Shown here piece by piece: positions 1,554 through 22,076 of a DNA stretch of 64,000 nt; position 1 is the stretch's first letter, and each line of letters begins with the position of its first letter. Where the stretch lies: the IMG/VR virus record IMGVR_UViG_3300027976_000028, positions 2,055 to 66,054 of that record, one strand, 5' to 3'. The DNA comes from a virus. The position numbers and the translations under genes were made by a program. The notes under the pieces are model-generated. The model was not told where the DNA came from, searched no databases, and saw nothing but the letters and a program-made list of their open reading frames with translations.

Positions 1554-2255
1554 ATGCGCTTACGAGAATTTATACAACCATTAGAAGAACTTGCAACTGT
1601 AACTCACCGTAATGAGATGGACCGTCTCTTCAAACAAAACGGTTACAAAAAGATTGGTTCCGGTGCAGATGCAATGGTTTATAAGAAAGATAGCAGCCAT
1701 GTTATCAAAATCTTATTCCCAGAAGATTATTCACCAGCAGCAAAGGCAATTAGATCATTCACAACGTTTTATGAATTTGTTAAGGCTAATCCAACATCAC
1801 CGTTCCTACCCAAAATTTCTGAAGTAAACGAAATTGAAGTAATGGGTGAGGTTTTCACGCAGATCGCAATGGAAAAGCTAATGCCCTTAAAATCTGGATC
1901 TTTCCTTTTAGTCATTGTTTATCAAATAATCAGTGATATCGAAGAAGGTGGCGCGCCGGGGCCTAAAGGGGAAGGATTTAAGAACTTGCTATTATATCTT
2001 CAGAAACATCCAGCGAATTGGGATAACGACATCCCGTTCGACGATAGACATTATAACATGTCGCCGATTGCACAATCAATTCTAGCCAATCCCGCTAAAC
2101 TGAAATTCTACAGTGATTTTTATGATATTGCAGAAAAATTACACGCCACAGGTTTAGCACATCCCGATGGTCCTTTAGGATGGGATTTACACACCGAAAA
2201 TGTAATGCTTCGTGGTCAAACACCCGTAATCATTGACCCTTGGTTTATGAGTTAA
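1554..2255 (+). CDS. Protein kinase-like (Ser/Thr kinase fold) protein
   Basis: IGSGADAMVY glycine loop, VIK lysine, DLHTENVM catalytic loop, IIDP; start reassigned to ATG 1554 (MRLREFIQPLEE). Confidence 0.8.
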   Translation: MRLREFIQPLEELATVTHRNEMDRLFKQNGYKKIGSGADAMVYKKDSSHVIKILFPEDYSPAAKAIRSFTTFYEFVKANPTSPFLPKISEVNEIEVMGEVFTQIAMEKLMPLKSGSFLLVIVYQIISDIEEGGAPGPKGEGFKNLLLYLQKHPANWDNDIPFDDRHYNMSPIAQSILANPAKLKFYSDFYDIAEKLHATGLAHPDGPLGWDLHTENVMLRGQTPVIIDPWFMS

Positions 2256-2293
2256 TCACGCAGTAGGCAGCCTGCCCTTTTGCTAAATATCGT

Positions 2294-5200
2294 ATGAAAT
2301 CCCTGAACGAGTATTTAAACGAAGTTATTGCCCAACAAGAGTATGTATATCATGTGTCACATCTACCTAATCTTAAACTTGGGTTACGCAGTATAATTAA
2401 AAGTGGGTTACAGCCCTCTAAAGTTGGATATTCTGGACCCGGCGTTTATTTTGCATACAAGCCAGACGGCGGCTTCTACCATGTAGATGCAAGCGAAGCA
2501 ACTATGTTTCGTGCTAAATGGAAAAATCTTGTTGCACATTATGGTGTATACCCGCAAGCCCCGAATGGCATACAACGCGACGACGATGAAATCATTGTAC
2601 CAACGAGTGTACCCGTAGAAATGTTAGAAGTAGAATATAATCCCGGCGAATGGTGGGATGTAAAAAGTGCATTAGCAGCAGAAAATGGCCCAATGAACGA
2701 GGTTACCATTGACAACAAAGATGGTGCAGGCGCAGTCCCATACAATGCTGATATAGACTACTTTGGACTTCGCGTACAGATGAAGCCAAGTACATTCCTA
2801 CGCTTGGCCGAACCACTTGGCAAGCCACACGACCCGGAATTAGAAAAATATATGGCAGCGGGCGGTGCAACAGGCTCCCCATTTTTAGAAATAGCAATTC
2901 CTGAAGAATGGGATGTTGGCAATTTTAGTAAAGTTGCGCAGGTTAAACGTCACGAAGGTCGTAATCGTGCCACAATAACACAAAAGTTAGAAGGTGACAG
3001 TCCAATAGAAGTTCACCTTATACCACTTGGAGGATATCGTAATCGAGATTTAACTCCAGAGTTTATTAAAGCGTTAAGCGATGGTTTATTCGCAGAGAGG
3101 ACTACTCGTGTTGTAAATGGCCCATTGTTTACTGCAATGGTCGTAACTGAAGATGATGAAACTCTGCCTATGGCCGATAATCCAGAACATGTCCGCATGG
3201 CTGAGTTAAAGAGACTTATGGGTGCGTTTCCAAACTCAGCAGACTACATGTATAGTATCCCGGCGTATAAGCGGGCTCGCCTGCTATTCAACAAGGGCTT
3301 ACTCAAAGCGTCAAGACCTGAAATTGAGTTACTCCTCAAATTAACAACGTCGACTGGTGATCTTAAACCACTTAGTGAAGAAGAGGAATTAACTGAATTA
3401 TTTGAACCAAGCAATAAAGAATGGAAGTGGAAGCATCACTATAACACATCTGCTATAGCGTTATTTAAAATAGGCAAAATCCCATATATGTTTATGGCCG
3501 AAACATATACGCACCCCGATAGTCCAGAATCTGCGGGCATGTGGGATGTTGTTTTCAAAATCGACAAGCACTATAGCGGCTATACTGATCTCGAGGCCAC
3601 TTCATACGGAATCACTGGCTCTGGCAACTCTGCAGAAGTAATGGGAACGGTAGTAAACATCCTAAAGGATTTTATCAGCATATACAAAGAAACACTTCGC
3701 GGTATTACATTCGTTGCCAACGAAGATTCACGACAATCCCTATATGCTAAAATGGCACATAGATTATTACCAAATTGGGAATTCTATAAAGATGGCAAGG
3801 AATTCATATTATCAAAGCCAGAGGATAATGTAAATGAATCAGTGGTTAATGAAAGCCTAAGCCGCATTGCCTATCACTATACAAGTTTATCTAGTGCATT
3901 AAATATATTGACTACTGGGCAGTTTCAGCTTGCATCAACACTTGGTAGTGTTGAGGAGAAATATGCGCCTCAAGGGCATCATTACTTCATGAGCACTACA
4001 CGCTCTAGCAGAGGCGGCTATCACGACAGCAATGTAACAAAAAACTCGACAAGTGGTATATTATTTGCATTGGACGGCAACTGGTTTAATCAACACTACA
4101 AAGCAGGACCCATAGATTATTGGCAAAATCGTAATCAAAATCAAAGATTTAACGTCACGCACCACGAATCCGAAGACCGTATATTTTCGCGGACACCTAC
4201 TATTCCAATTGGCGGGATTACAGCGGTTCACGTATTCATGAAGGTAATGGATAATAAAGAACGGGACAATTACGGTGCAATGGCACCAGCTAATGCGCGT
4301 CAACTATTATTACGAGCAAAGACACTTGGCATTAAGGCATACCTATATGAAGATGTTACTGCATGGCACAATTTAGATATTAGAAAAACTGTACCTATTA
4401 CAAATAGAGAAACACTTCGCGGTCCCGATCTTAAGAAAGAACGTACATCATCAAAGCCCCGTGGATATTTAATGCCATGGATGGAATTGTTGCAAGCAAA
4501 AGAAGTGTCACAATTGTCTAAGGCTGCAGATCGCATTCGTTATAGTCTACAATATACATATGATGCTCAGAGTGCTATAGAGGGTTTAGCAAATAATTTA
4601 AGCAATGCCCGCAAGCCCGATTCAGGGGGCGATCGCGAAAATGCTGCGAAGCTAATAAGATTTATGCAACAGAATAAGTTGAACACTATTTCTGAACTTG
4701 TTAAGGCAATTGGGGACAAGTGGAAAGCTATTGCTGCCAAGAAACCCGCTAACGAAGTAATAGAATCAGATACCCCAATTAAACTTACAAGCAATGCAAA
4801 AGCTAAAGGTTGGATTGATAAAGTATACGCAAGGTATCCGCAGATGTTCCAACGCAATCATGTCATGCCTCTTGGCGGTGCGGGCAATGATCAACAGTTT
4901 GCTATGTTTGAACTAACACCAAGCTTCGCAAAACGTGATGCAGTGGAGGTAACATGGATACAAGCTTATCCAATGGGGCAAGGCGTAGGTGCAAGAGCAA
5001 TGAAAGAACTGCAAGCACTTGCAACTGCAGATGGCATTAGTTTAACATTATTCCCTTGGGACAAAGGACAAGTATCGCAGGCTAAATTGACAAAGTTCTA
5101 CAAAGGGCAAGGATTCAAGCCTACTGCCAAGGGTTCAAGGACCATGGCATGGAGTCCGATTACGGAATTGTTTGAACCGAGCACTAAAGACTGGAAATGG

Positions 5201-7027
5201 GAATTCCGTGGCAAATACACCGCCTCGGCGGTGTTTACTGTAGAAGGTATCCCGTATAAGTTTCATGCATCTACAGAGCCAGACCCAGATATTTACGGAA
5301 TATGGGATATTGAATTTACAATAGAAACTCCAAGACCGCCCGGTCGTTCAGTTAGATACAATCTATCGGGTACAGGTAACTCGGCTGCTGTAATGGGAAC
5401 CATAGTCGACATAATGAGGGCATTCCTAATTAAGTACAAGGATAACATCGGCGCATTGCAATTCTCTGCCGATGAAGTATCAAGGAAATCATTATATAAG
5501 CGAATGATTCAACGGTTATTGCCAAATTGGAAACTAAAGAGCTATCCTGGCGATATGTTCTCTATTACGCCGCCTGCGCTCCGCAAAAAAGTAATTAAGC
5601 CAACAGTTGAAACTGCAAGGAAAACTCTCAACGACTATCTTAACATTGTTATCGAAGACTTCAATTCAAATCCATACAGCAAAACTACACTACCGCTGGG
5701 TCCATATCGCGGACTAAGTAATCCACTGGACAATGATCATTCAGAATCATACGAAGCCTCGGAGTTATGGGATATAGTCGAAGATCAAATTGAAAAAGGT
5801 ATTAAACCAACCGTAATCGATTTTCCTATAAATCAACTTGAAGCTACACAGGATTGGTTAAGTAGTGAAGCAGGCGACGAAGCACTATTTGACGAATATA
5901 CAGATCATCCGGTTGTATTAGCATACGCAGCCGACAATTATATACTTGATGGGCATAATCGTATTGCCGCTGCAATTAAAAATAAACAAGTTAAAATACC
6001 AGTGTTTTTGTTTGATGCTGATGTGAAAGTAACAGAAGGTGAATCTAATATGAAAATTAGAGAATTGCTAATGAACGGAGGCTGGGCAAGTGACTTAACT
6101 TTTTCCACAGTCATCACACCAGCAGTAGTGCAAGAAATGGTAAAACATCTTGCGGAGTTTGAACAGAAATTCAATGAATGGGAAAAGCAGGGTAATATGG
6201 GATTAGAGATTAACATTGGCAAACCAGTGGGCTCGGGTACATATTATGAACGAGATCTTATACAAGATCCAACACGAGAATATGGCGATGTTGATGTTAT
6301 GTGCTATATTACAAGTCTCCCAGATGAAAGTGCTGCCCAACGCATCGCTGTTTATCGCACTGCTATTCAATCTTTCTGCCAACTCAATGCAAAATACAAA
6401 ACAGATAATGGCACTAATGTTATATTTGATTCAGCGGCAGGCCCCGTACAAGTTGATTTAGTTTACACCTTCCACGAACACGCAAATTGGGGACGAGCAT
6501 TAGCACCAGAATATAGGGTTAAAGGGGCTATTAATACAAGTTTAACAAGCGCAATGGCCGACGCCCTGAATCTTAGTTTTAGCTCTCAAGGTGTACAGGC
6601 AAAATTACGCAATGGACAGCCAGTAAGCTTCCGCCAAAGTAAAGATACGATACTACATATGGTATCAATTGATCCCGAGAACTGGGCAAAGGACATATAT
6701 AGTTTCTATTATGAATTGGCAAAAGGTGAAAAGCCAACATCGTTTCCCGGGGGACTTGAACAGCATAGCGGGATTAAAGACGAGCAACGGTTAAGTGACA
6801 TTGTATATGCTATCAAGAGTCTTGTAGCGGCCTTTGAGCAATCAATGATATTACCTCCAGATTTAATGAATAAGATTGCCGATATATTTGTGAGCAAAAT
6901 GGATGCACAAATTGGGTCGTCAAAGTACTTAACAGCTCAAACACCTGAAGCCGTCGCTAAAGCTGATAAGACTAAGGCTATGTTTATGCGCTACAAAGAA
7001 GAGATACCAAAGTTGCTTCTGAGCTAA
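2294..7027 (+). CDS. 1577-aa multi-module (polyvalent) protein: ART-like x2, ParB-like x2, repeated unknown domain x2, GNAT, nucleotidyltransferase
   Basis: YHVSH..GPGVYF..DEII; HEGRNRA; LFEPSxKxWKW repeats at 3398 and 5168; AYHYTS..YFMSTTRS; GQGVGARAM..LTKFYKGQGF; ILDGHNRIAA; VGSG..YGDVDV. Confidence 0.8.
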   Translation: MKSLNEYLNEVIAQQEYVYHVSHLPNLKLGLRSIIKSGLQPSKVGYSGPGVYFAYKPDGGFYHVDASEATMFRAKWKNLVAHYGVYPQAPNGIQRDDDEIIVPTSVPVEMLEVEYNPGEWWDVKSALAAENGPMNEVTIDNKDGAGAVPYNADIDYFGLRVQMKPSTFLRLAEPLGKPHDPELEKYMAAGGATGSPFLEIAIPEEWDVGNFSKVAQVKRHEGRNRATITQKLEGDSPIEVHLIPLGGYRNRDLTPEFIKALSDGLFAERTTRVVNGPLFTAMVVTEDDETLPMADNPEHVRMAELKRLMGAFPNSADYMYSIPAYKRARLLFNKGLLKASRPEIELLLKLTTSTGDLKPLSEEEELTELFEPSNKEWKWKHHYNTSAIALFKIGKIPYMFMAETYTHPDSPESAGMWDVVFKIDKHYSGYTDLEATSYGITGSGNSAEVMGTVVNILKDFISIYKETLRGITFVANEDSRQSLYAKMAHRLLPNWEFYKDGKEFILSKPEDNVNESVVNESLSRIAYHYTSLSSALNILTTGQFQLASTLGSVEEKYAPQGHHYFMSTTRSSRGGYHDSNVTKNSTSGILFALDGNWFNQHYKAGPIDYWQNRNQNQRFNVTHHESEDRIFSRTPTIPIGGITAVHVFMKVMDNKERDNYGAMAPANARQLLLRAKTLGIKAYLYEDVTAWHNLDIRKTVPITNRETLRGPDLKKERTSSKPRGYLMPWMELLQAKEVSQLSKAADRIRYSLQYTYDAQSAIEGLANNLSNARKPDSGGDRENAAKLIRFMQQNKLNTISELVKAIGDKWKAIAAKKPANEVIESDTPIKLTSNAKAKGWIDKVYARYPQMFQRNHVMPLGGAGNDQQFAMFELTPSFAKRDAVEVTWIQAYPMGQGVGARAMKELQALATADGISLTLFPWDKGQVSQAKLTKFYKGQGFKPTAKGSRTMAWSPITELFEPSTKDWKWEFRGKYTASAVFTVEGIPYKFHASTEPDPDIYGIWDIEFTIETPRPPGRSVRYNLSGTGNSAAVMGTIVDIMRAFLIKYKDNIGALQFSADEVSRKSLYKRMIQRLLPNWKLKSYPGDMFSITPPALRKKVIKPTVETARKTLNDYLNIVIEDFNSNPYSKTTLPLGPYRGLSNPLDNDHSESYEASELWDIVEDQIEKGIKPTVIDFPINQLEATQDWLSSEAGDEALFDEYTDHPVVLAYAADNYILDGHNRIAAAIKNKQVKIPVFLFDADVKVTEGESNMKIRELLMNGGWASDLTFSTVITPAVVQEMVKHLAEFEQKFNEWEKQGNMGLEINIGKPVGSGTYYERDLIQDPTREYGDVDVMCYITSLPDESAAQRIAVYRTAIQSFCQLNAKYKTDNGTNVIFDSAAGPVQVDLVYTFHEHANWGRALAPEYRVKGAINTSLTSAMADALNLSFSSQGVQAKLRNGQPVSFRQSKDTILHMVSIDPENWAKDIYSFYYELAKGEKPTSFPGGLEQHSGIKDEQRLSDIVYAIKSLVAAFEQSMILPPDLMNKIADIFVSKMDAQIGSSKYLTAQTPEAVAKADKTKAMFMRYKEEIPKLLLS

Positions 7028-7360: not shown

Positions 7361-8077
7361 ATGTTGTTACGAGAAGTCATTGCGGTTCGCAAAGTTATCA
7401 ATGAAGGTGGAAATGTCTTTAAGGACAAGGATGGCACACCGCTGACTGATCGTATTCAACGTGCAGATGTAGAGCCTACAGTAAGATGGTTAGAGAGTAT
7501 CACGGGATACAACTTGTTTTCTCACTTGCTTGGTACAACGGGCAAGAAAGAGAGTTCCGGCGACATTGATATTGGAATGGAAGAGGTTGCAACAAAAGAA
7601 GACTTAGTAAATAAACTAACAGTTTGGTGCTCTCAAAATGACGTAGAGGCAGCAACATACATTAAAAAGTCCGGCATTAACGTACATTTTAGAACGCCAA
7701 TTGGCGGATCATCAGATCGTGGGTTTGTACAAACCGACTTCATGTTTGTTCCTAATTTAGATTTTGCCAAGTTTGCAATGGCAGCGGATCCGCATAGTAA
7801 GTATAGAGATATGTACAAGCATATCACGATGAGTTCTCTTGCAAAGCCGTTGAATATGTTATGGAACCCAACGACAGGTTTGTCTGATCGTACTACTAAG
7901 AAAGTAATATCTACAGACCCAGACAAAATTGCACAAACGCTATTAGGACCAAACGTTGATCGCACTGCGATTACAAGCGTAGAATCTATATTAAGAGCTC
8001 TTGAAAATGATCCTCAGAAGGACGAAAAATTAGCAGATGCAAGAGCAACTCTTGCAAAAACTGGGATAACAATTTAA
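7361..8077 (+). CDS. Nucleotidyltransferase (Pol-beta superfamily)-like protein
   Basis: LLGTTGKKESSGDIDIG (hG[ST]...DxD) plus VQTDFMF third acidic residue. Confidence 0.7.
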   Translation: MLLREVIAVRKVINEGGNVFKDKDGTPLTDRIQRADVEPTVRWLESITGYNLFSHLLGTTGKKESSGDIDIGMEEVATKEDLVNKLTVWCSQNDVEAATYIKKSGINVHFRTPIGGSSDRGFVQTDFMFVPNLDFAKFAMAADPHSKYRDMYKHITMSSLAKPLNMLWNPTTGLSDRTTKKVISTDPDKIAQTLLGPNVDRTAITSVESILRALENDPQKDEKLADARATLAKTGITI

Positions 8078-9538
8078 ATGCTATTACGACAAATTATACT
8101 TGAGAAAGAAGGATTCGATGCAAACGAGCTATTAGCATTTAAAGATGTCATTGCGTCGAAGATTAAGCAATTGCCGCAAGATGATGCCACTGCTAAAACT
8201 CTTAAAGAAATTGAGGAATTATTGACGCACGTTAATGCAGGCGGACGAATGGGTATGATAAATGGAGCATTGCACTCAATAAATGATCCAGCTGTATTAT
8301 CTTCACAAAAACGGTTATCACAGTACCTTGCAAGTATGGAAGTAAGTCCTGACGAACGCAAGGAGTTATTTCACCTATGGAAAACAGATAAGATTCTTAA
8401 CATTGATGTATTGTTGTCTAAAAAGAATGTTACCTTCTCGGAACTATTCAACGGTTACGATACTAACAAAGCTATTAAAGAGTTAGTAGATGACGTAATG
8501 GAAGTTGCTGATTTGGGGCAAGGCAAGGGCGAGTTTGGTCTTAATGTATTATCAAAGAGTGTTAGTAAACCAGGGTCGCATACAAACTTAGATCAAGATG
8601 GAGATGACAAAGCTAAGGGTGACTTAATTATTAAATACAACGGAAAATGGCGTAAGATTGAAGTTAAAACAACACAGGGCGGTGGCGCACGATTTGCCGA
8701 CCAAGAAGTGCGTCCAGCCGAAGGATATGAAGCTGCATCATCTGAATTAAATGCATCAGTAGAGAAGTTAAAGAGTTCATTGGTGTACAAAGAAGTATTC
8801 CCCAATGGAATGGCCAAGGGTTACGGTATGAACCTTGGGCAGGCTATTAATTGGTATCGCCATACTCAATTGCCAAAAGTAAAAGCAGATTTCCTTAATA
8901 AGGTTGATAACGTAGTAACATTGATTTTTGGCGGTAAGAAAGCTGATCATGCTAAAGTATCGGCTATTATAAAAGCCATTAAATCAGGTGATGATAATAC
9001 TGCGAAGCAACAATGGGCACAGGCGTGTTTTAATTACTACATTGGACAAAAGGATGACGAAGGTGTCCTGGCTATTAACTTGAATAGTAAGAGCATTATG
9101 TTCTATAGTACATCAGATGACCTTACTAAACAAGGTTTACGTTTCTCTGCTGATACAATTTACCTAACTGCTAAAGATGCACAGCGCGGAGCATATCCAC
9201 AAATTAGTGTTATCCCAACCACCTTTGGTGCTAATGCCAAAGCAGCAGGAGAAAAGAAAGCTGCCGACGCCGAGAAGAGTAGACTACGTGGATTAACACG
9301 GGCAGCGACTGCAAATCCAGTTGATGCACCAGCGCGCCACCCAACAGTAACTCGTGCCCAATTTAACAAAGACATGCTAGCATTCGCTACTAACTTTGCA
9401 CACCGTAAGAAGATATATGATCCGGGTCGTATTAAAGAACTTAGTGTATTTGCAGCTGATTTAATTGCCAGTGGCGCATCAATGACGAGCATTAGGAAGC
9501 AATTAAGCGGCCATGCTGCCGAGATGTTACCATCATAA
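8078..9538 (+). CDS. Putative PD-(D/E)XK nuclease-fold protein
   Basis: GKGEFGL..KGDLII..KIEVK motif. Confidence 0.55.
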   Translation: MLLRQIILEKEGFDANELLAFKDVIASKIKQLPQDDATAKTLKEIEELLTHVNAGGRMGMINGALHSINDPAVLSSQKRLSQYLASMEVSPDERKELFHLWKTDKILNIDVLLSKKNVTFSELFNGYDTNKAIKELVDDVMEVADLGQGKGEFGLNVLSKSVSKPGSHTNLDQDGDDKAKGDLIIKYNGKWRKIEVKTTQGGGARFADQEVRPAEGYEAASSELNASVEKLKSSLVYKEVFPNGMAKGYGMNLGQAINWYRHTQLPKVKADFLNKVDNVVTLIFGGKKADHAKVSAIIKAIKSGDDNTAKQQWAQACFNYYIGQKDDEGVLAINLNSKSIMFYSTSDDLTKQGLRFSADTIYLTAKDAQRGAYPQISVIPTTFGANAKAAGEKKAADAEKSRLRGLTRAATANPVDAPARHPTVTRAQFNKDMLAFATNFAHRKKIYDPGRIKELSVFAADLIASGASMTSIRKQLSGHAAEMLPS

Positions 9539-10167: not shown

Positions 10168-11220
10168 ATGAAACTTTCTGAACTCCATACCATTATAGAA
10201 GATGAGGGCGGTGGTGCGTCTGCTGGTGCTACATCAAGTGGGGATATTGCCACTGTATCATTCCCGTTAATGACAAGGGGTAAGAACAAAAAAGCAAGAT
10301 TTGCAGCCGGTCGTAAAGCAGTTGGACTAAGTGGAAGTGTTACAAGTTACATTGGCAAGGGCGTGTATGAAGGTAGTGGCGCAGGGATAGGAAAGAAGCA
10401 TATTAGCCCAAGTGGAGTTAAAACTAACATGCCACCATCAGACGAGGATTATGAGATCAACTACGGTAAGAAAGGGGTTGCTGCGAAAGGCATCGGAGAA
10501 GCCCACACACTTGACAACAACAGTGTTATCTACAAATTGGATCCAACTGATCCAATGAACAAAACAGAGGTTATGGTGTTAGGCGGTGCAGGTCGTTATA
10601 CATTGTCCTCTCTGCGTAATAAAGCACGAAAAGAAGCGCAAGCATTAACAACCGATTTACAAGCTGAACATGGTGGTTCATTCCGCAGTGCAGCATATAA
10701 TATTAAACAATTAACAAATACACTGAATACCATCGTTGCTGCTTATAATGAATTAAAAAGAATTAGGCAGAAAGGCGGTCGAGGCTCCCGTGGCATTACA
10801 GACGAGGATGCAAATTTCGTCCGCGAACACCTTGAGACACTTGAACAATATGTTATTATTGTATCAGAAGCAAGGGGACTTACTGCTAATTTCAAAACAG
10901 CATTGAAAGAAGGCAAGTTAAACAAGATGCATACAGATGCAATATCGGGCATGTACCACCTTGGCATAGATCCGGGTTATGAGATGTACAGATGGTCAAT
11001 TCACACCGCTGGAAACAAAGGAGGACCAGACGCTGGACTTGGTCCAAAAGCAGGACCATTCGCCTTCGCATACACCGACGAAGAGGATGTTATGATCCGC
11101 AATGCAGTGAAAGCAATGGGTGGCAAAATTAAAACATTGTCCGCACGCGGTAGTATCGAGTCTGACGATGTCAATAAAGTCAGTGCAATTCCGGTGTTGA
11201 ATTGGAAGAAGATTCATTAA
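10168..11220 (+). CDS. Putative internal head protein with Glu-delimited modules
   Basis: MKLSELHTIIE leader; internal VYE/IGE/VSE/LKE sites; TATAAATA 4 nt upstream. Confidence 0.7.
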   Translation: MKLSELHTIIEDEGGGASAGATSSGDIATVSFPLMTRGKNKKARFAAGRKAVGLSGSVTSYIGKGVYEGSGAGIGKKHISPSGVKTNMPPSDEDYEINYGKKGVAAKGIGEAHTLDNNSVIYKLDPTDPMNKTEVMVLGGAGRYTLSSLRNKARKEAQALTTDLQAEHGGSFRSAAYNIKQLTNTLNTIVAAYNELKRIRQKGGRGSRGITDEDANFVREHLETLEQYVIIVSEARGLTANFKTALKEGKLNKMHTDAISGMYHLGIDPGYEMYRWSIHTAGNKGGPDAGLGPKAGPFAFAYTDEEDVMIRNAVKAMGGKIKTLSARGSIESDDVNKVSAIPVLNWKKIH

Positions 11221-11617: not shown

Positions 11618-14600
11618 ATGATCACACTTAAAATTCTGCATGAAGGCAAATTTCAGAAACAAATCTCCAGCCGCGTGCATGAAGGAATTGTCATTGAGCA
11701 ACTAACAAGGTATAAAGGACTTGTTGACGAGATTCAATATTCCGGAGAGTTAACTGAAGGTGCAAGAGAAGTAATGCAGCGAGTTGCCAAAAAAGTAGTA
11801 CCAGCAGCTCTCGCAGCAGGAATGGCGATGGGCACACACGGAGCAATGGCGCAAAATAATCCGCATTACCCCGGCCTAAACAAAAGCATTGGCCAGCATG
11901 TATCTGATATCTTTAGCCCCAACTACAATGAAATACAACGGCAACGCCAGTATGAAAGGCAAACACAGCAACGCGAATGGGATGCTAAACAGAATGAAAT
12001 TCGCCAAGCCCGCGTGCGTGATGCAAGAAATTCTGGTCGTGATGCCACTGGACAGCCGCGTGGCAATGTAAAAGTATATGACCAAGCACGCCGTTCAGCT
12101 GACGGCAAGTACTTTCTGTTGTATGACATGGATGATCGCATCACACGGATTCCCGTCAACGGTACGGAGTATATGGAGGCTGATTCTCAACGCCTCCCTC
12201 ACTATATTGCACCAAACGGCTCGGTATATTATGTACGGAGTCCAGCAGCAAATGCGCAACCAACAGAGCAAATGGTAGCAGATGGACTTGGGGCAACACC
12301 AATGATACCAGCAAGTGGTACTGGTGCAGAAAAGCGAGCAGGCGGAGCAGCAGTGGCCGGAGTAGGTAGTACAGGTAGTGTTGGTGTTGCTCCTAAAACA
12401 ACACCTGCGGCCGCTATTGCCGCGGCCGGTATAAATCCACTTGATGCCGATGACGAAGTTATTTCAAATCCAGATGGCACAACAAATTTAAGTATTAAGA
12501 ACGGCGAACTTGTCATTGATAAGCCCGGTGTTAACGAAGCAAAGGGGTTAGCCAAGAAAGTTAAAGTTGTTAAAGGCGAACACGCTAGTAAGACAGGCTA
12601 TATTCGCCAAATTAAACATGGTGCATTTAAAGGTGCTCCGAAAACATACTATATAGATCTTGAGGATGGCACGCAAGCAAATAACATACCCGCTTCGTCA
12701 TTACGTTTAGTCAAAGATGCGCCAGTAACCGAAGGCGGCACATCAAATGATCTACAAGCAATATTAGATCAATACTCTGAGTCGTATGCAGACTTTAAAG
12801 AAGGTGGTGACTTAACGGATAATGACGCATTCTTCCAGGCACTATTTGATTATTTTAGCAACTCTGGCGATATGCCTTATGGTGTTGCCAAAGCACGCGA
12901 TGGAGATCCTGTCCAATGGATCACAGATAGATTAGATGATTTATCGGGTATGGGCGATAAAGTAGCAGAAAGCGACCCAAGTGGACTTATGCACGCCGCA
13001 AAAACAATGAATAACGAATGGCGCATTACAGCAATGATGGATGATGGCAAGGTAAAGAAATTCCGAGTTAGAACACAGAGTGCAAGAACAGCACAGGAGA
13101 AATTTAAGAAAATCCATGCCACCGCACAAATTCAAAATGTTGAACGCATCGCCGAATCACAAATTGAAGGGACGGCACCAGTCAACGAGTTTTACGATTC
13201 AAGTATTGATAGAAATGATGATAGCTATGGTCCCGATGATTTGCATCTTTATATCAATGTCGCTAAAAAACTTGATATGAAGAAATACAAAACAGAAACT
13301 GCACATACTCTAATTTCCAAAAAAATGGCAGGATTAGTTGCGACAGTTGATGATGACAAGGTTACCTACGCTTATCAAACTGCACAAAAAGAGCAAGGGT
13401 TGCCTCATCTATTAGGCGAAGCCGATTTAGCATTTGATGCTGACGATACACTGTATACACTCACTGATACCTATCGCGATATCATGTCATCTGATGCGTA
13501 CGATACTGACAACAAGCAACAAATTGGATTGTTGTATGATATGTTAAGGGATCCATTAATGGCAGGGGATGAAGATGAATATTATAAAGTTCACGCTTAC
13601 TTACACGCAAAGTACCCAGACGCAATGGACGAACTATTAAGAGCAGCAGACCACCTAGCTCAAGGACCGCTATCAGAAAACCCACTATCACCAACCACTA
13701 GATTCCGTAGTATTCATGGCAATTACTGCGGTACCGGTAATCGTGGTGGTATGCCAACTGACAAGTTAGACCGTGCATGTTTCCATCACGACGTAGGTTA
13801 CAAAAAATCAAGAGAGTTGCCAGATAAAGACGCGGCGCTTGCTGCAAGAGTTATCGCAGATACTCGTTTCATGGATAGGGTGAATAAGATTCAGCATGAT
13901 AAAAGCTACTCGGCTTCAGTTAGATTTAAAGCCAGGATATTTGGCAACTATTTTAAGATAAAGAACAGAAATGCAGTTCCAGTAGGTGTTATTGAAGGCA
14001 CACATGATTACGCTAAACAGTTCACGAGTATGATGGACAAAATCAAATCAAAGAAAATGGTCACTGACCGTAGCACCGGCGTTGAGTATGATCCCGAAGA
14101 GGAATTTCTCAAGCTGTTACAGCAACATAAAGCACAATTTCAAGGAATGGCTGCAATTGAAAAAGCACAGAAGAGAGGTGTAGCAGAATCATTAAATAAA
14201 GATAGATACGACCAAGAGCCCATTGATCAACTTGACGATCAAATAAGTGACATTCTGCTTCGTGCTTATGAGAAACACGATAATCGAGATGATGTCATTG
14301 CAGCAGCATGGCCGGCTGCAAAGCAAGCAGCACAAGAGTTGAGTATTGATCCGACGGGCAAAAGCTTTCATACCGTTTGGAAATTGGCAATTGGTAGCGA
14401 TGCTGAGTACGCAGATGAAAATCCAGCAATGGCAGACACTACAAAGCGGCTACAAGATCCAAATGATGGTAAAACTGCCAAACTAAGAGCAAGCGGCGAT
14501 AAGAAACGCGACGGTCACCAATCTCAATCATATGGATATGTCCAAGACATTCCAGATATTGATGCAGATGATGTCTTGGCGATAAGTAGTGCTATGAAAC

Positions 14601-14662
14601 CCGTATTCGAGGCGCAGACGCGTGTTGGTAAAATCATCAAATCAGTTTTTGGAACAAAATAA
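11618..14662 (+). CDS. 1014-aa modular protein with a phospholipase A2 module and a KOW/SH3-like module
   Basis: HGNYCGTGNRGGMPTDKLDRACFHHDVGY at 13715-13801; about 13 [LIV]xE sites. Confidence 0.75.
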   Translation: MITLKILHEGKFQKQISSRVHEGIVIEQLTRYKGLVDEIQYSGELTEGAREVMQRVAKKVVPAALAAGMAMGTHGAMAQNNPHYPGLNKSIGQHVSDIFSPNYNEIQRQRQYERQTQQREWDAKQNEIRQARVRDARNSGRDATGQPRGNVKVYDQARRSADGKYFLLYDMDDRITRIPVNGTEYMEADSQRLPHYIAPNGSVYYVRSPAANAQPTEQMVADGLGATPMIPASGTGAEKRAGGAAVAGVGSTGSVGVAPKTTPAAAIAAAGINPLDADDEVISNPDGTTNLSIKNGELVIDKPGVNEAKGLAKKVKVVKGEHASKTGYIRQIKHGAFKGAPKTYYIDLEDGTQANNIPASSLRLVKDAPVTEGGTSNDLQAILDQYSESYADFKEGGDLTDNDAFFQALFDYFSNSGDMPYGVAKARDGDPVQWITDRLDDLSGMGDKVAESDPSGLMHAAKTMNNEWRITAMMDDGKVKKFRVRTQSARTAQEKFKKIHATAQIQNVERIAESQIEGTAPVNEFYDSSIDRNDDSYGPDDLHLYINVAKKLDMKKYKTETAHTLISKKMAGLVATVDDDKVTYAYQTAQKEQGLPHLLGEADLAFDADDTLYTLTDTYRDIMSSDAYDTDNKQQIGLLYDMLRDPLMAGDEDEYYKVHAYLHAKYPDAMDELLRAADHLAQGPLSENPLSPTTRFRSIHGNYCGTGNRGGMPTDKLDRACFHHDVGYKKSRELPDKDAALAARVIADTRFMDRVNKIQHDKSYSASVRFKARIFGNYFKIKNRNAVPVGVIEGTHDYAKQFTSMMDKIKSKKMVTDRSTGVEYDPEEEFLKLLQQHKAQFQGMAAIEKAQKRGVAESLNKDRYDQEPIDQLDDQISDILLRAYEKHDNRDDVIAAAWPAAKQAAQELSIDPTGKSFHTVWKLAIGSDAEYADENPAMADTTKRLQDPNDGKTAKLRASGDKKRDGHQSQSYGYVQDIPDIDADDVLAISSAMKPVFEAQTRVGKIIKSVFGTK

Positions 14663-14663: not shown

Positions 14664-16808
14664 ATGAAATTCTTTACAGAAATTAAAACAGTTAGTGAAG
14701 CATCGGTTGCTGCAGGCCCACGCACCAACGTTGAAGAAATGTTCAACCAGGACACATATGCTGGTAATCCTGGTGAGTTTGATAAAAGTGACCCACATGC
14801 CAAGCCCAAATTGGCACCAAAGAAGAAAAATCCCAACGATGGCAAATTTGTTCAACATGGCGCAAAAGTTCCCCGTGGATATACAATGACTGCTCATGGG
14901 CGGGTTGTTAAAGAAGTGGCCAAAGACGGCCAGGTTGATGAAGGCGGACAATTCAGTTACGGTGCAAAGGACCCAAAGAAGGGCAGCCAAAGAGAATTAA
15001 GCGCAAAGGCAAACAAAGATGCCAAGAGTAAGTCAACACCAATCGAGCCCAAGGATCAAATGGTTGGCATCGCCAAGGTTACGAAAGTTAAAGAAGGACT
15101 CGCTGATGATTTCATGGCATCTATTGACAAGAAGAAATTCCCCCAGGCACGCATAGTTGGTAATGTTGATGCACAGAAAAAAGAGCGTGACGAGATGATT
15201 GCAAAACGCACCGCTGATAATGCAAACAAACCAACACCCGTTAAAGGTCCCGGCGATTTAGCAGCTGGCTTTGGGCAGAATAAAGGCTACGGTCAGGGTC
15301 GGTACATGGGTGATTCTAAAATCAATGCTGCAAGTGCAGTTACCGAAGCAGGTGGCGAGAAGAACTATGGTGTTCGCTACAAAGTATTCGCGAGTAAAGA
15401 AGGTAGACTTACTACAAAAGAATATTGGACAACATCGTCTGAGAAATTAGAAAGAGCTGCAACGAAGATTGAGGAATTGGGTAACTTCCACTCTATCGAC
15501 GGGTATAGCTATCCTCCTGAACCACAGGGCATGGCAGAAGGTGATCAAAGCAAAAGTGCATCTGCCAGCCGTGCAAAAGAAGCACACGAGCAAAACCTTG
15601 ATGCAGCACATAGGGAATTGATGCAGCGTGATGCAGATGGTGAGGATATGAGTGGATATCATGTCAATCCCCGTACATACAAAATTCAGAAGCAGCTACC
15701 GGGCAAAAAGTGGACGCAAGAAGAACAGCGGGCGCATATGATTGATAGAATGCGTAATGAAGGATTAGAGGAAGCCAGCGTCATGACATCGGGTCACAAA
15801 GGATATGACGCCATGCTATCAATTATGAAAGCAGCCGCCGCCGGTCGTGCAGCCACATTTACCATTGGCGAAGAAGAACTTACATTAGATTACAACGAAG
15901 CTACATTCTTAGCAGGAAAATACAAGGCATTCCTAAAAGCAGGTAGACAAGAAGAGTTCCTGAAGTATATGGAAAGTCCACGGCTGTTTGATCGTTTAAT
16001 GTCACAGTTGCGCACGATGATTGATAAGCAAAAGAACTTCAAAGGTTCTGTACAAGGCGATCGTCAAGTGCCCGGCGAGAAAAGCAGTCCTTTTGAAAGT
16101 GTTACCGAAGGGCATGTGGGTCCAACGCATAAAGATTGGGCATCTGCTGTTCAACGGGTTAAACAAAACAAGTTTAAAACAAGTGATCTTGTAAATTCGG
16201 TACAAAGTGTACCATATAAGCATCTTGCACAATTAGCACGAGATTCTGGACTCACCCCATCTGACGAGATGTTGAAACATGAGAACAAAAGTAAAGTAAA
16301 AAATGTCGCCGAAGGGCACTGTTCTCCTGGTGACAAAGTGAAGATTGATAATCCAAGTTCAATCCATCATGGAAAGACAGCCACCGTTGTTTCTCACAAT
16401 AAAGAAACTGATAAGACCATTGTTAAGCACTCTGGCGGCAAAACAATGAGTGTTGACCATATGTATCTTGAGAAAATTAAGGCCACTAAGAAGATCAATG
16501 AACTTAGCCCAAAGACACTTGGCTCGTATGCTAAGAAGGCATCAAGTTCAAGCGACGAAAGAAGCAATTCCAGCTTATCGTCACGCGCCGCCTACAAATT
16601 AGCAAACGATGAAAGAAATGATGACGGAGACGAAGACGATCATAAGTCATTCATGCGCTCAAAGGGAATTGCAAAAGCTGTTGATAGATTGACCAAGGAA
16701 AGTCCCTCATTGAAAGAAGGGCAATACTTCTGCCTAAGAGACAATGTTGCCAAGGTAATCCCAACCGGTTATAAGTTACTTGAGAGTGGCTTCATTGCAA
16801 GGAAATGA
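14664..16808 (+). CDS. 714-aa modular, charged putative internal head polyprotein
   Basis: MKFFTEIKTVSE leader; about 12 [LIVM]xE sites incl. INE-LSPKTLGSYAKKA; start reassigned to ATG after the upstream TAA. Confidence 0.7.
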   Translation: MKFFTEIKTVSEASVAAGPRTNVEEMFNQDTYAGNPGEFDKSDPHAKPKLAPKKKNPNDGKFVQHGAKVPRGYTMTAHGRVVKEVAKDGQVDEGGQFSYGAKDPKKGSQRELSAKANKDAKSKSTPIEPKDQMVGIAKVTKVKEGLADDFMASIDKKKFPQARIVGNVDAQKKERDEMIAKRTADNANKPTPVKGPGDLAAGFGQNKGYGQGRYMGDSKINAASAVTEAGGEKNYGVRYKVFASKEGRLTTKEYWTTSSEKLERAATKIEELGNFHSIDGYSYPPEPQGMAEGDQSKSASASRAKEAHEQNLDAAHRELMQRDADGEDMSGYHVNPRTYKIQKQLPGKKWTQEEQRAHMIDRMRNEGLEEASVMTSGHKGYDAMLSIMKAAAAGRAATFTIGEEELTLDYNEATFLAGKYKAFLKAGRQEEFLKYMESPRLFDRLMSQLRTMIDKQKNFKGSVQGDRQVPGEKSSPFESVTEGHVGPTHKDWASAVQRVKQNKFKTSDLVNSVQSVPYKHLAQLARDSGLTPSDEMLKHENKSKVKNVAEGHCSPGDKVKIDNPSSIHHGKTATVVSHNKETDKTIVKHSGGKTMSVDHMYLEKIKATKKINELSPKTLGSYAKKASSSSDERSNSSLSSRAAYKLANDERNDDGDEDDHKSFMRSKGIAKAVDRLTKESPSLKEGQYFCLRDNVAKVIPTGYKLLESGFIARK

Positions 16809-17434
16809 TTATGGAACTTACAGTACTTACAGTAGATCAATTACAAGAATGTTTGCCTAACGCACGCCGAGAGCGTCTTGAATTTTTCGTTGATGGTATT
16901 AACGAAACATTCGAACAATTTGAGATTGATACACCGCAGCGCATGGCAATGTTTCTTGCTCAAACTGCCCACGAATCTGCTAACTTCTCTGCTGTTGAGG
17001 AAAATTTAAACTACTCAGCCAAGGGCTTATTGGGCACATGGCCAAAGCGTTTTCGTGGCGTAGAGAATCAATATGCCCGCAAGCCACAACAAATTGCCAA
17101 CAGAGCATATTGTGATCGCATGGGCAATGGTTCAGAATCAAGTGGTGATGGATGGAAATACCGTGGCCGCGGCCTGATTCAACTTACTGGCCAAGACAAT
17201 TACCGTACCTGTGGAGATGCATTGAATCTCAATTTACTCGATGATCCTGATATGGCTTCAAAAAATCCAGCAGCAGTGCTTAGTGCAGGATGGTTCTGGA
17301 CCACTCGTCGTTTAAATGAGATAAGTGATTCAGGCGATGTAGCAAAGGCCACAAAGGTTATCAATGGCGGTTCTAATGGTCTACTTGATCGGCAATCTAA
17401 GTATCAACATATTATAAATGTGCTTAGTGCATAA
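16805..17434 (+). CDS. Glycoside hydrolase family 19 endolysin
   Basis: FLAQTAHESANF..EENLNYS..DGWKYRGRGLIQLTG..NY..SAGWFW..TKVINGG. Confidence 0.92.
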   Translation: MIMELTVLTVDQLQECLPNARRERLEFFVDGINETFEQFEIDTPQRMAMFLAQTAHESANFSAVEENLNYSAKGLLGTWPKRFRGVENQYARKPQQIANRAYCDRMGNGSESSGDGWKYRGRGLIQLTGQDNYRTCGDALNLNLLDDPDMASKNPAAVLSAGWFWTTRRLNEISDSGDVAKATKVINGGSNGLLDRQSKYQHIINVLSA

Positions 17435-17446
17435 CATCCTTGGTCA

Positions 17447-17653
17447 TTATATCCCCCACCGCAACACAAACAATACTAAATCTTCCTTGTCTTTGAAATA
17501 GATAGTTTCAAACCCATTTGTGTACCAAACCATGTCCTCATTCCAAAGAGAGCACTGTACACCATTTCCAAATGTAGTACTACACCATTCAATTATATCC
17601 TCCCACGGCGCTAGACCATTGTACTGCCAGGCGGTATAATCCAAACTAGTCAC
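17447..17653 (-). CDS. Small protein, FxxxxDxxxFxLRW paralog family
   Basis: C-terminus YFKDKEDLVLFVLRWGI. Confidence 0.65.
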   Translation of the reverse strand: MTSLDYTAWQYNGLAPWEDIIEWCSTTFGNGVQCSLWNEDMVWYTNGFETIYFKDKEDLVLFVLRWGI

Positions 17654-17871
17654 CTACCCCACCGTAAGTTAAACCATGCAAGGTCTTCAGCAGACGAGAA
17701 AAAGAAATCATACTTATTAAGATTAATCCGGTGATAAGCAAGATGTACATTTACCTTGATATCAGCATAATGATTATAGTTTGTAATGTAAGTTGGGCAA
17801 TTTAATTTAGCCCAAATAAGTGCATCATCTACTATTGCCTCATCTACAATTGCGATAAAACTCATGCCCAT
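17650..17871 (-). CDS. Small protein, FxxxxDxxxFxLRW paralog family
   Basis: C-terminus FFSSAEDLAWFNLRWGR. Confidence 0.65.
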   Translation of the reverse strand: MGMSFIAIVDEAIVDDALIWAKLNCPTYITNYNHYADIKVNVHLAYHRINLNKYDFFFSSAEDLAWFNLRWGR

Positions 17872-18305
17872 CTCAACTTAAAATACATATAGTCTTCTTG
17901 GTCCTTAAAGGCAACGAATACAATATCGACACCGCTGATCTCATTAATCTCCCACTCACTGTCGGCATCGTATCTAAACACACGAAAGAAATCGTGGCGT
18001 ACTTTATCGCAACAGTTATCCTCACACCAATCGACTATATCGTCAAAACCATATCTATATCCGCCGGGGCCATAATCATATTTTAAAGTATATGCGTAAT
18101 GCTTACTGCTTTCGAACCCGTGAACATATTGGTAGCCGTGATAATAGTCCTTCACGCGAGTAGCACGATAGGAAATATCAGGATCGTTTTTGCGATTATA
18201 TTGCTTCCATGTTGCACATCCGTTTTTCTTAAGAAGGCGATCATCGGACCATGCTTTATATTTCGCCTGTACCTTTGGGAATAGTAGTGGTAGTAAACTA
18301 TCCAT
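17862..18305 (-). CDS. Protein of the FxxxxDxxxFxLRW paralog family with N-terminal extension
   Basis: C-terminus AFKDQEDYMYFKLRWA. Confidence 0.7.
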   Translation of the reverse strand: MDSLLPLLFPKVQAKYKAWSDDRLLKKNGCATWKQYNRKNDPDISYRATRVKDYYHGYQYVHGFESSKHYAYTLKYDYGPGGYRYGFDDIVDWCEDNCCDKVRHDFFRVFRYDADSEWEINEISGVDIVFVAFKDQEDYMYFKLRWA

Positions 18306-18570
18306 GTACTGTCACCCCAAACCGTAACCCGCACATTATAGCATCTTCCTTTGTAGTAAATGTTATTTGGGAAATAATATCATACTTGCTGCTTGTATCA
18401 CTTACATCTGAACTTTCCATAATCCAGCTGTTATTCATCCCGTGATATGTGTTAAACCAGTTCCACTCTTCTTTAGTGGTGCGTTCGAGTTTTTCGACAT
18501 TTTCTTGTAGCCATGTTAAAATATCGTTGTCGTCATTGTCGCCAATGTATAAATTGTAAACTTCAGCCAC
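18298..18570 (-). CDS. Small protein, FxxxxDxxxFxLRW paralog family
   Basis: C-terminus TFTTKEDAIMCGLRFG. Confidence 0.6.
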   Translation of the reverse strand: MAEVYNLYIGDNDDNDILTWLQENVEKLERTTKEEWNWFNTYHGMNNSWIMESSDVSDTSSKYDIISQITFTTKEDAIMCGLRFGVTVHG

Positions 18571-18820
18571 CGAATGTCAACTTAAAGTAAGCTGCCTCAT
18601 CTTTATCTCTTATCAATACAGTAAACATTGGATCGCCAGAATTGAAGCATGAGGTGAAGTAAGCCGTTGGGCAGTTAGTACCCATCCATATAACAAATTC
18701 TGCATTGTCATCTGTATACACCCAACAAAACCAACCTACGCGAGTTTTGTCAAATGTTGTTACTTCTGATAACCCATTATCGTATTGCCAATAGCGGATA
18801 TTAACGTTCATTGTGACCAC
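18563..18820 (-). CDS. Small protein, FxxxxDxxxFxLRW paralog family
   Basis: C-terminus LIRDKDEAAYFKLTFGG. Confidence 0.6.
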   Translation of the reverse strand: MVTMNVNIRYWQYDNGLSEVTTFDKTRVGWFCWVYTDDNAEFVIWMGTNCPTAYFTSCFNSGDPMFTVLIRDKDEAAYFKLTFGG

Positions 18821-19098
18821 ATGTTAATTAGCGCAATTGAATCTATGATAACGAGCAATGAGAAGTTAGCAACCATACCGGTACTTCCGCGTGTCTTTGC
18901 TGCCCACCCAAATATTATACATTGAAGAATAAAAACTGGATAAAGAATTAGAAACGGCGGATGCGGAACTGTTAATGCCATCGTAATAGCGCAGCCAATG
19001 CTCATGAACCATGCAAGAATTTCGAGGGTAGTCCGTGTAGGATTCTCCTGCCAATCCTCTTTTACATAGTCACGAATCGCAACTAATAATTTTTTCAC
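18808..19098 (-). CDS. Small multi-pass membrane protein
   Basis: About three hydrophobic helices in 96 aa. Confidence 0.7.
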   Translation of the reverse strand: MKKLLVAIRDYVKEDWQENPTRTTLEILAWFMSIGCAITMALTVPHPPFLILYPVFILQCIIFGWAAKTRGSTGMVANFSLLVIIDSIALINMWSQ

Positions 19099-19101
19099 AA
19101 A

Positions 19102-19356: not shown

Positions 19357-19376
19357 ATATTCCCTTGTAAATATAC

Positions 19377-19405
19377 ATTTTACACTAATCAAGAGCAGAA
19401 GTCAA
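19377..19405 (-). promoter_or_regulatory. Sigma70-type promoter
   Basis: TTGACT-N17-TAAAAT. Confidence 0.65.
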
Positions 19406-19470
19406 CATAAGTTGTAGCCAATGGCTAAATGGGCTCGTCGATATAATGAGTCTTAACTTCTAGTCAAATT

Positions 19471-20337: not shown

Positions 20338-20345
20338 ATCGATAT

Positions 20346-22021: not shown

Positions 22022-22026
22022 AAAAA

Positions 22027-22055: not shown

Positions 22056-22076
22056 GTTGTTTAGCGGAGGTTATTT

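Follow-up and report, generated by a model that had tools for sequence, protein, structure and literature searches.

A multi-module effector protein of a T4-related jumbo phage carries prohead protease-type motifs at its module junctions and is probably a head-targeted polyprotein

Is a very long phage protein built from many enzyme-like modules a single multi-enzyme chain, or the precursor of separate proteins that are released inside the phage head? We address this question for P0001, a protein of 1577 amino acids (aa) encoded by an open reading frame (ORF) at 2294..7027 (+) of a 64,000-nucleotide (nt) window. By the window we mean the whole stretch of DNA analyzed, which corresponds to bases 2055–66054 of the 71,024-bp IMG/VR viral record IMGVR_UViG_3300027976_000028. 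The record is a jumbo-phage fragment, since its CheckV completeness is only 21%. A first-pass annotation, made from the sequence alone, had proposed that this ORF, which exists as claimed, encodes a polyprotein whose domain boundaries coincide with [LIVM]-x-E sites and which is cut into about nine effectors inside the head. We find that P0001 is probably an effector polyprotein that a T4-related jumbo phage expresses late and targets to its heads, where a gp21-type prohead protease cuts it at the module junctions. Four comparative tests, independent of one another, favor this proposal, concerning the junction motif in shuffled homologues, the stand-alone versions of the modules, the protease genes of related phages and the N terminus of P0001 itself; cleavage, packaging and a yield of some nine products are predicted from these comparisons.

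Processing of single-cargo internal proteins (IPs) by means of a capsid targeting sequence (CTS) and the protease gp21 is classical. In T4, the IPs reach the prohead core by virtue of a CTS of 10 residues, which is subsequently cut off; CTS residues 8 and 10 govern processing, Asp at P1 blocks it, and gp21 cuts after Glu in L/I-x-E (PMC9026906). We set the module borders of P0001 independently of any such motif, using BLAST breakpoints against 41 homologues (869–2092 aa, on contigs of up to 332 kb) in which module orders and contents differ. Homology breakpoints define nine modules, M1 (residues 16–136), M2 (133–286), M3 (287–365), M4 (362–516), M5 (∼515–830), M6 (∼820–955), M7 (956–1115), M8 (∼1122–1246) and M9 (1257–1577). 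Each border bears one of the previously cited [LIVM]xE sites (ΦxE below), so that the asserted coincidence of boundaries and motif holds, and every cited tripeptide is found where it had been placed. The junction Glu codons end at 2323 (LNE), 2701 (MNE), 3151 (VTE), 3397 (LTE), 3853 (VNE), 4765 (VIE), 5167 (ITE), 5656 (VIE) and 6037 (VTE). Slightly off was the start given for the last module (6050), as its conserved GGWAS sequence begins after an extra site, IRE, which ends at 6064, four residues upstream. The features of the locus are as follows.

2284..2289 (+): T4 late-promoter-like element TAAATA, recognized by sequence, separated by 4 nt from the ATG; no Shine-Dalgarno sequence present
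2294..7027 (+): P0001, putative polyvalent effector polyprotein, whole ORF, 1577 aa; 41 homologues of 869–2092 aa with shuffled modules
2294..2323 (+): CTS-like leader MKSLNEYLNE, residues 1–10, ending LNE; by likeness to the T4 IPII/IPIII leader
2324..2701 (+): M1, residues 11–136, ADP-ribosyltransferase (ART)-like by motifs (H-Y-E type), ending GPMNE; limits from BLAST and stand-alone homologues
2702..3151 (+): M2, residues 137–286, HEGRNR module, ParB-like by motif only, ending VVTE; limits from BLAST and alignment
3152..3397 (+): M3, residues 287–368, small helical module or linker, ending EELTE
3398..3853 (+): M4, residues 369–520, DUF6934 repeat A with a predicted GNAT-like fold, ending in the double site VNE-SV-VNE
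3854..4765 (+): M5, residues 521–824, second ART-like module (by motifs) with a helical C-terminal subdomain, ending EVIE
4766..5167 (+): M6, residues 825–958, putative GNAT-type acetyltransferase-like module, ending SPITE; common to P0032–P0040
5168..5656 (+): M7, residues 959–1121, DUF6934 repeat B (predicted GNAT-like), M4 paralogue, ending NIVIE
5657..6037 (+): M8, residues 1122–1248, ParB/Srx-like by the motif ILDGHNR, ending KVTE; colinear only with P0007
6038..6064 (+): spacer GESNMKIRE, residues 1249–1257, between the candidate sites VTE and IRE
6065..7027 (+): M9, residues 1258–1577 and stop codon, predicted Pol-beta-superfamily nucleotidyltransferase with GSGTYY...GDVDV

M9 is the constant C-terminal module of the family, occupying this position in 30 of the 41 homologues. 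M3 is spanned by none of the 41, with P0010 reaching only residue 301.

Comparison of the shuffled homologues reveals that the motif is tied to the junctions. Among 42 non-redundant family members, [LIVM]xE occurs in 213 of 326 homology-breakpoint zones, compared with 106 ± 8 expected, and none of 2000 permutations reached 213. Control motifs are not enriched at the junctions, or barely so (seen versus expected: [LIVM]xD 128 and 104; [LIVM]xK 72 and 95; [AGS]xE 127 and 113; [KR]xE 53 and 50). The motif directly precedes the GGWAS anchor of M9 in 30/30 homologues, behind at least 12 unrelated upstream contexts, P0001 itself being the exception, and it directly precedes M4/M7-type starts (xFEP or AFDQP) in 21/21 copies. 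It stands at a fixed short distance before the starts of M2 and M5, and the M1 start is similar. Some homologues begin with MTKPVGE/YVYH or MTKPMNE/VKIDN (the slash marks the position after the Glu), and M2 is N-terminal in P0015 and P0016, where it follows MTKPMNE. In an alignment of the M1+M2 region the junction Glu is the only near-invariant column common to all rows, and the same is true for M4+M5. The junction logo has Glu at P5 (23%), Ser at P4, Val (44%), Ile (26%), Leu (21%) or Met (9%) at P3, Ala, Asn, Thr, Asp or Ser at P2, Glu at P1 and Ala, Gly or Ser at P1′ (57%). Junction sites are often doubled (ESΦxE); non-junction sites have a hydrophobic P1′. The homologue comparison suggested with the original proposal thus came out in its favor: modules are shuffled, and [VIL]-x-E followed by A/G/S is kept whatever modules flank it, as expected of prohead-protease sites.

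AlphaFold models of residues 360–830 and 815–1577 (mean predicted local distance difference test score (pLDDT) 58 and 61, respectively) bear on the same point. The junction sites at 366–368, 513–520, 822–824 and 956–958 are found in coil with pLDDT below 50. Structure alignment delimits a GNAT domain at 373–513 and places the start of the nucleotidyltransferase at ∼1261. Non-junction ΦxE sites in the confidently modeled M6 and M9 (871, 903, 1279 and 1286) are located inside strands or helices, as are those at 401 and 799 (block pLDDT ∼68 and ∼88, respectively). The segments below pLDDT 50 are 360–372, 513–525, 818–832, 920–961 and 1079–1265. The last of these is unmodeled and contains the sites 1119–1121 and 1255–1257 in predicted helices, again with pLDDT below 50; here the models are uninformative. 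A comparison of modeled boundaries with motif positions hence agrees with the proposal at four junctions and leaves the three around the unmodeled M8 unjudgeable.

The motif also ends N-terminal leaders. P0001 starts with MKSLNEYLNE/V, which mirrors in length and spacing the T4 IPII/IPIII leader MKTYQEFIAE/A (read from NC_000866); the same record has ITE/A in IPI, MELITE/LFDED in Alt and FLTE/AEIGG in gp23. A profile search with M9 against 1.84 billion cluster representatives (50% clustering) located 202 M9 relatives, mostly stand-alone proteins of 320–360 aa, in a family without a Pfam match. A leader of 6–26 aa is present in 61 of them and ends in [LIVM]xE exactly before GGW in 58; the modal leader is a 9-mer, M[RK]xxE[FIL][IL]xE (e.g. 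MRAKEFIIE/GGW, MRATEFIIE/GGW). Where M9 lies inside other multi-module proteins, ΦxE again stands before it. Stand-alone M1 homologues (n = 51, 130–137 aa) start with M[KR]xx[ED]Φ (in full, M[KR]xx[ED]Φ...ΦxE) in 44 cases, e.g. MRAQEFIIE/TRQPGEYVYHAS, compared with a background of 7/153 ORFs in the window, several of which are probably real leaders. A stand-alone M5 is encoded by the Straboviridae Vibrio phage 6E35.1a (p0039, leader MKKFNEFAKELEE/A) and a stand-alone M2 by Ralstonia phage RsoM2USA (RsoM2USA_385, leader MQTFKQFLSE/D).

The gene immediately upstream of P0001 in the window provides a further case. It encodes a stand-alone kinase-like protein of 233 aa (1554–2255 (+); weak Kinase-PolyVal/phrog_15752 match) with the CTS-like leader MRLREFIQPLEE ending in a candidate site, and it probably starts at the ATG at 1554 rather than at the listed TTG at 1539. 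The protein is 36–38% identical to an internal module of polyvalent proteins in four relatives (L014, L003, L004 and L019), where this module follows KQGVAE. In G002, a 333-kb relative (92% complete), a 655-aa protein has M9 at its N terminus and reads MRAKEFLPE/GGWAN (M9), LSE/GNAT and LNE/kinase-like. M1, M2, M5, M9 and the kinase module therefore exist as stand-alone genes in other phages, and where they carry T4 CTS-like leaders the junction motif stands directly before the same first residues. The N terminus of P0001 is in effect a stand-alone CTS–M1 protein with eight modules appended, judged by these alignments. Each module would get the same mature N terminus after a leader or after another module, and the junction motif may thus let internal-protein genes fuse, split and reshuffle without loss of function. 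Five proteins of ∼179–187 aa (P0202, P0204, P0205, P0208 and P0210) have the leader MKINEIISE, a basic module of ∼45 aa, a junction (.NE or.SE) and M1; these mini-polyproteins follow the same grammar in its smallest two-module form.

Near-complete relatives encode a matching protease. G001 (285 kb, 86% complete), which carries the 1898-aa homologue P0043, and G002 both contain a Peptidase_S77 gene (PF03420, E ∼2e-26, above the Pfam cut-off), which adjoins genes for a gp22-like scaffold, a gp23-like capsid protein (PF07068, E ∼1e-97) and the portal. The G001 protease shares 62 identities with T4 gp21 and keeps the GVSSRG segment. In the G001 capsid protein, KKYLTE/TATAGG aligns with the T4 cleavage site FLTE/AEIGG. 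The genes downstream of the polyvalent gene are syntenic in the window, G001 and the 332-kb UFOVP71 genome, with ∼60% identity, and given this synteny with G001 it is reasonable, though unproven, that the P0001 phage has a gp21-type protease like its relatives. In UFOVP71 (L010, LR797824.1) the region just downstream of the polyvalent homologue (15905–22597) encodes CsgF- and CsgG-like curli secretion proteins as well as curlin-repeat-like, FecR-like and CHASE2–guanylate-cyclase proteins, a curli-type cargo that is unusual for a phage.

What enzymes would such a polyprotein release? The M4 model (positions 14–154, residues 373–513) aligns in VIA-align with GNAT acetyltransferases at Z 7.3–8.6 and a root mean square deviation of 3.2–3.9 Å over 103–113 residues for the top matches, and the best 50 are all GNAT-type. 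M7 is an M4 paralogue (39% identity), both modules beginning with a sequence like LFEPSTKDWKW. The models thus support a GNAT-like fold for M4 and M7, with acetyl-CoA binding and activity being predicted only. For M6, which is modeled at pLDDT 66–87 over residues 835–919, the single Foldseek match is the acetyltransferase 1ufh_B (rank 40, E 4.7e-3, probability 1.00, 116 columns); the match comes without a model range, and its assignment to M6 is ours, so that a GNAT-like fold is more weakly supported here than in M4 and M7. Counted together, M4, M6 and M7 would give P0001 three GNAT-fold modules, as the models support. M9 (pLDDT 70–93) has no Pfam match, but Foldseek matches TUT7, NF90/NF45, Pol beta/lambda, CdnC and GLD-2, and residues 1261–1500 align with Pol X/Pol beta in VIA at Z ∼8 (160–195 residues aligned). 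Its catalytic motif GSGTYY...GDVDV (hG[GS]...DxD) is invariant in 21 sequences, and the models support a Pol-beta-type nucleotidyltransferase fold.

M1 has the motifs YVYHVS (YH[AV]S in the family), GVYFAY and DEIIV, a set that we consider similar to the H-Y-E signature of PARP-type ARTs. M5, which is poorly modeled (M5a is unusable), has the conserved columns YH.T, YF[LM]S.TR and E.EDR. A language-model atlas gave weak leads for M1 to PARP/Arr (0.90–0.91) and for M5 to DarT/PARP (0.88); Pfam and PDB profile searches, including Pfam scans of M1+M2 and M5 family members, returned no match for either ART label. The ParB-like motifs are HEGRNR in M2 and ILDGHNR in M8, the latter module being unusable in the model (pLDDT below 50). 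P0001 has no ParB/Srx match in Pfam, and searches with M1+M2 returned no Pfam or PDB match for M2; the family scan contains a single PF02195 match, in P0016, which is not attributable to M2 as opposed to M8. On these motifs M1 and M5 are putatively ART-like and M2 and M8 putatively ParB-like. The domain labels given at first pass hence fared unequally: a GNAT-like fold (in M4 and M7, Z up to 8.6, and more weakly in M6) and the nucleotidyltransferase (Z ∼8) gain structural support, whereas the two ART-like and two ParB-like labels lack support from hidden Markov models or PDB sequences. Relatives contain further domains, namely deaminase, amidoligase, zeta-toxin-like kinase, ParB_N and additional GNAT and nucleotidyltransferase modules.

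Searches with the entire protein add little to this. Pfam and PHROGs scans returned DUF6934 (PF22028, residues 443–491, E 5.7e-7) and two PHROGs of unknown function, and nothing meaningful came from the PDB when the whole protein, M9, M1+M2 or M5 served as query in sequence and profile searches. No cultured phage gave a megablast match to the gene. In tblastn, P0001 gave only partial matches, each to a single module: residues ∼518–830 match Salicola SCTP-2, the Dickeya JA11 group, 253-kb Vibrio phages and Pseudomonas Lu11, and residues 134–279 match Ralstonia RsoM2USA. An artefactual gene fusion is ruled out, as similar long ORFs are found on many independent contigs.

We propose the following pathway. 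The P0001 gene would be transcribed late, as in T4, from the TAAATA element that abuts its ATG, by analogy with T4 late promoters. Its leader, MKSLNEYLNE, would direct the protein to the prohead core like the CTS of T4 IPI–III, given the sequence likeness and the stand-alone homologues. The leader would then be removed by a serine protease of the gp21 type (Peptidase_S77), whose cuts follow the Glu of L/I-x-E, and the same protease would cut the [VIL]-x-E sites followed by A/G/S at every module junction. This would free up to nine proteins: one ART-like, the HEGRNR module, a small helical module, three with a GNAT fold, a second ART-like, a ParB-like and a Pol-beta-type nucleotidyltransferase. 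The freed modules may leave the head together with the DNA and engage host or defense targets early.

Several observations weigh against this pathway. ΦxE is not enriched in P0001 as a whole (28 sites seen versus 23.7 expected from composition), and we rejected global enrichment as an argument. The sites cited at first pass are 11 of these 28 and, with the overall count at chance, the claim depends on their placement. The last junction is atypical, IRE standing four residues before GGWAS. P3 is mostly Val (44%) at internal junctions, and Ile or Leu in stand-alone leaders (46% and 41%, with Val in 7%) and in the T4 consensus; internal sites may for this reason be poorer substrates, be processed at a later time or escape the protease altogether, and Val at this position could mean ordered, slower or partial cleavage. 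M9 does not always need a propeptide, since 25 of its stand-alone relatives start with MGGW and have no leader. Many homologues have N termini unlike a CTS (MTKPVGE.., MSYTSQQ.., MTDKQDF..), and their targeting route is then unclear. No Peptidase_S77 gene is present in the 71-kb record itself, which is 21% complete. The prohead-protease cleavages identified in phage SPN3US all yield N-terminal propeptides, apart from self-cleavage of the protease (PMC10052503), and our literature searches found no report of a prohead-type protease releasing several functional domains from one chain.

Some of these points fit another reading, the main rival, which we regard as unlikely but deserving of attention: P0001 is packaged and its leader trimmed, and the rest persists as an intact polyvalent chain in which the internal ΦxE sites are scars of the leaders that the modules had before fusion, or only a subset is cut, leaving one or a few multi-enzyme chains, as envisaged by Iyer et al. 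Fusions of the existing stand-alone versions with leaders would inherit the motif, the Val preference at internal P3 is unlike that of leaders, the SPN3US propeptides are N-terminal, and polyvalent proteins of the N4 virion RNA polymerase type are packaged unprocessed (PMC5512222). Scars would be expected to decay, yet the hydrophobic P3 and the P1 Glu are kept in 30/30 and 21/21 cases while P2 and the flanks vary. Doubled sites are frequent, the small P1′ is typical of cleaved sites, and only the three-residue core of the leader is kept, which is its processing and not its targeting part (PMC9026906). That P3 and P1 are strict where P2 and the flanks are free, that sites are doubled and that P1′ is small all point to selection for cleavable sites.

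That P0001 is not a virion protein at all is improbable. It would then be a cytoplasmic multi-enzyme, and its ΦxE linkers would be structural or recombinational, serving as module-exchange codons or domain N-caps and having no link to a head protease. Packaging of P0001 is a prediction from sequence, acidic linkers are common in multidomain proteins, and in G001 the polyvalent gene (∼216–233 kb) is not adjacent to the head genes (∼108–118 kb). A generic acidic linker is difficult to reconcile with the behavior of the control motifs, of which ΦxD, ΦxK, [AGS]xE and [KR]xE are not or barely enriched at the junctions, and the same motif ends leaders with a close match to the CTS defined by experiment in T4; a leader at the extreme N terminus cannot be a linker. 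The free P2 and the variation of Φ among V, I, L and M argue against seams of recombination at the nucleotide level. More improbable still is cleavage by another enzyme or at another time, either through the Clp-type ATPases of the window or, once ejection has taken place, through a host or phage protease, instead of the prohead protease in the head. The window does encode ClpA/B-like and ClpX-like ATPases, and post-injection processing was considered by Iyer et al. (PMC5512222). The motif, however, fits gp21-type specificity, the LTE that aligns with the T4 site is kept in the capsid protein of relatives, and no peptidase domain came up in those members of the family that were scanned. To our knowledge, Clp proteases are not sequence-specific endopeptidases of such a kind.

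The surroundings of P0001 contain further genes with related features. TAAATA followed by ATG after 4–5 nt occurs 13 times in the window compared with 3.7 ± 1.9 expected, mostly at ORF starts, and five of the ORFs behind it bear CTS-like leaders. Examples, none with a Shine-Dalgarno sequence, are located at 1544, 2284, 10158, 20335(-), 22567, 24855(-), 36524(-), 55312 and 58547(-). These T4-late-promoter-like elements would yield leaderless or near-leaderless late mRNAs. Genes near P0001 include, besides the small kinase with its weak Kinase-PolyVal match, a 1014-aa ORF, a GH19 lysozyme, Clp-type ATPases and a clamp loader. Individual genes of interest are listed here.

7361–8077 (+): leader-like N terminus MLLREVIAVRKVINE/G
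8078–9538 (+): leader-like N terminus MLLRQIILEKE/G
10168–11220 (+): leader-like N terminus MKLSELHTIIE/D
11618–14662 (+): ORF of 1014 aa; phospholipase-A2-like domain (PF08398, E 2e-5), LPD24 match weak
14664–16808 (+): 714-aa ORF with the N terminus MKFFTEIKTVSE/A
19471–20337 (-): leader-like N terminus MKIKDITE/A
23391–24857 (-): leader-like N terminus MRIKDIYPFTAIQLNE/F
31930–34149 (-): ClpA/ClpB-like double AAA+ ATPase (phrog_4871, E 7e-232), 41–42% identical to proteins of Atu_ph07, Phosso and PA5oct
60308–61534 (-): ClpX-like ATPase (phrog_4339)

The genes at 7361–8077 and 8078–9538 have syntenic counterparts behind the polyvalent gene of both G001 and UFOVP71, and the ORFs at 11618–14662 and 14664–16808 resemble polyproteins of the P0001 kind. 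The leader-like ΦxE N termini of the genes so marked suggest that head-targeted proteins form a large set here. Among cultured phages, jumbo phages of the Atu_ph07, Phosso and PA5oct type have the nearest relatives of the ClpA-like gene.

Beyond P0001, we lean slightly toward the broader view that T4-related jumbo phages, in freshwater as well as elsewhere, produce the arsenal that they inject as a true polyprotein. A single late product would enter the prohead by one targeting signal that serves many anti-host or anti-defense enzymes, with the effect that the prohead protease dices the chain at standardized V/I/L-x-E sites, and the junction works as a plug-and-play connector for fusing, splitting and swapping genes between phages. 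If true, this would link the T4 CTS/gp21 pathway with the class of polyvalent proteins, which have been treated separately so far, and would answer how polyvalent proteins are activated, by trans-cleavage at standard junctions by the head protease. It would explain the extreme mosaicism of polyvalent genes and amount to a modular evolutionary grammar for head-delivered effectors, so far undescribed. It would also define several new and widespread internal-protein families (Pol-beta-type nucleotidyltransferase, H-Y-E ART-like and DUF6934/GNAT) as candidates for early host takeover or counter-defense, and could extend T4 protein-packaging technology to multi-cargo designs. In practical terms, head-delivered effectors of uncultured T4-like and jumbo phages, together with their mature N termini, could then be recognized by a simple rule: either a leader of the form M[KR]xxEΦΦxE or, where homology breaks, Φ-x-E with A/G/S after it. 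Our literature searches found no description of polyvalent proteins with a prohead-protease site at every junction, nor of the equivalence of stand-alone and fused versions, although most subscription journals were outside these searches and a prior description is possible.

How does P0001 compare with known systems? With the polyproteins of picornaviruses and flaviviruses and with retroviral Gag-Pol it shares a single translation product, a short conserved site at each junction and the use of a virus-encoded protease during particle maturation, the last by prediction. A conserved site for the cognate type of protease is found at each junction, and modules exist as separate proteins in the form of stand-alone genes. 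P0001 differs from these polyproteins in that it comes from a double-stranded DNA tailed phage, that its cleavage is predicted, that its products would be accessory host-attack enzymes and not replication or structural proteins, and that its architecture varies combinatorially between close relatives.

In the jumbo phages phiKZ, 201phi2-1 and SPN3US (gp175/gp245 proteases), many internal or ejected head proteins are likewise cleaved behind the Glu of a motif of three residues (S/A-x-E, A-x-E) and have several redundant sites (PMC9026906, PMC10052503). The motif of the phiKZ type is A/S-x-E, whereas that of P0001 is the T4-type Φ-x-E, and in contrast to the propeptide junctions of SPN3US, the P0001 sites separate folded modules that also exist as independent genes.

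Polyvalent proteins were described by Iyer, Burroughs, Anand, de Souza and Aravind in 2017 as having 2–15 effector domains per polypeptide, with extensive shuffling and predicted delivery with the DNA (PMC5512222). P0001 likewise combines several effector-type domains in one phage polypeptide that are shuffled combinatorially among relatives, the repertoire of its family (ART, GNAT, Pol-beta nucleotidyltransferase, ParB-like, kinase) matches theirs, and neighboring genes in the window have weak Kinase-PolyVal and LPD24 Pfam matches. The 2017 work proposed autoproteolysis by embedded zincin-like metallopeptidase (MPTase) domains or no processing, whereas the P0001 junctions bear the motif of a trans-acting prohead protease, which is undescribed at junctions in that work and in a 2021 survey of jumbo phages (PMC7824862).

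The closest resemblance is to the IPI, IPII, IPIII and Alt proteins of T4. The P0001 leader has the length and pattern of MKTYQEFIAE, T4 leaders end in L/I-x-E before a small residue, and the (L/I)TE/LFEP junction before M4 and M7 in the P0001 family resembles the Alt sequence MELITE/LFDE. The T4 cargo consists of effectors, such as the ADP-ribosyltransferase Alt and the anti-restriction protein IPI (PMC9026906), and genomes related to that of P0001 encode a gp21-type S77 protease. T4, however, processes single cargoes from which one leader is removed (Alt also loses a C-terminal piece), and P3 is often Val in the P0001 family, whose modules are reshuffled among relatives. P0001 itself carries nine modules on one chain, with a cleavage-type site at each seam.

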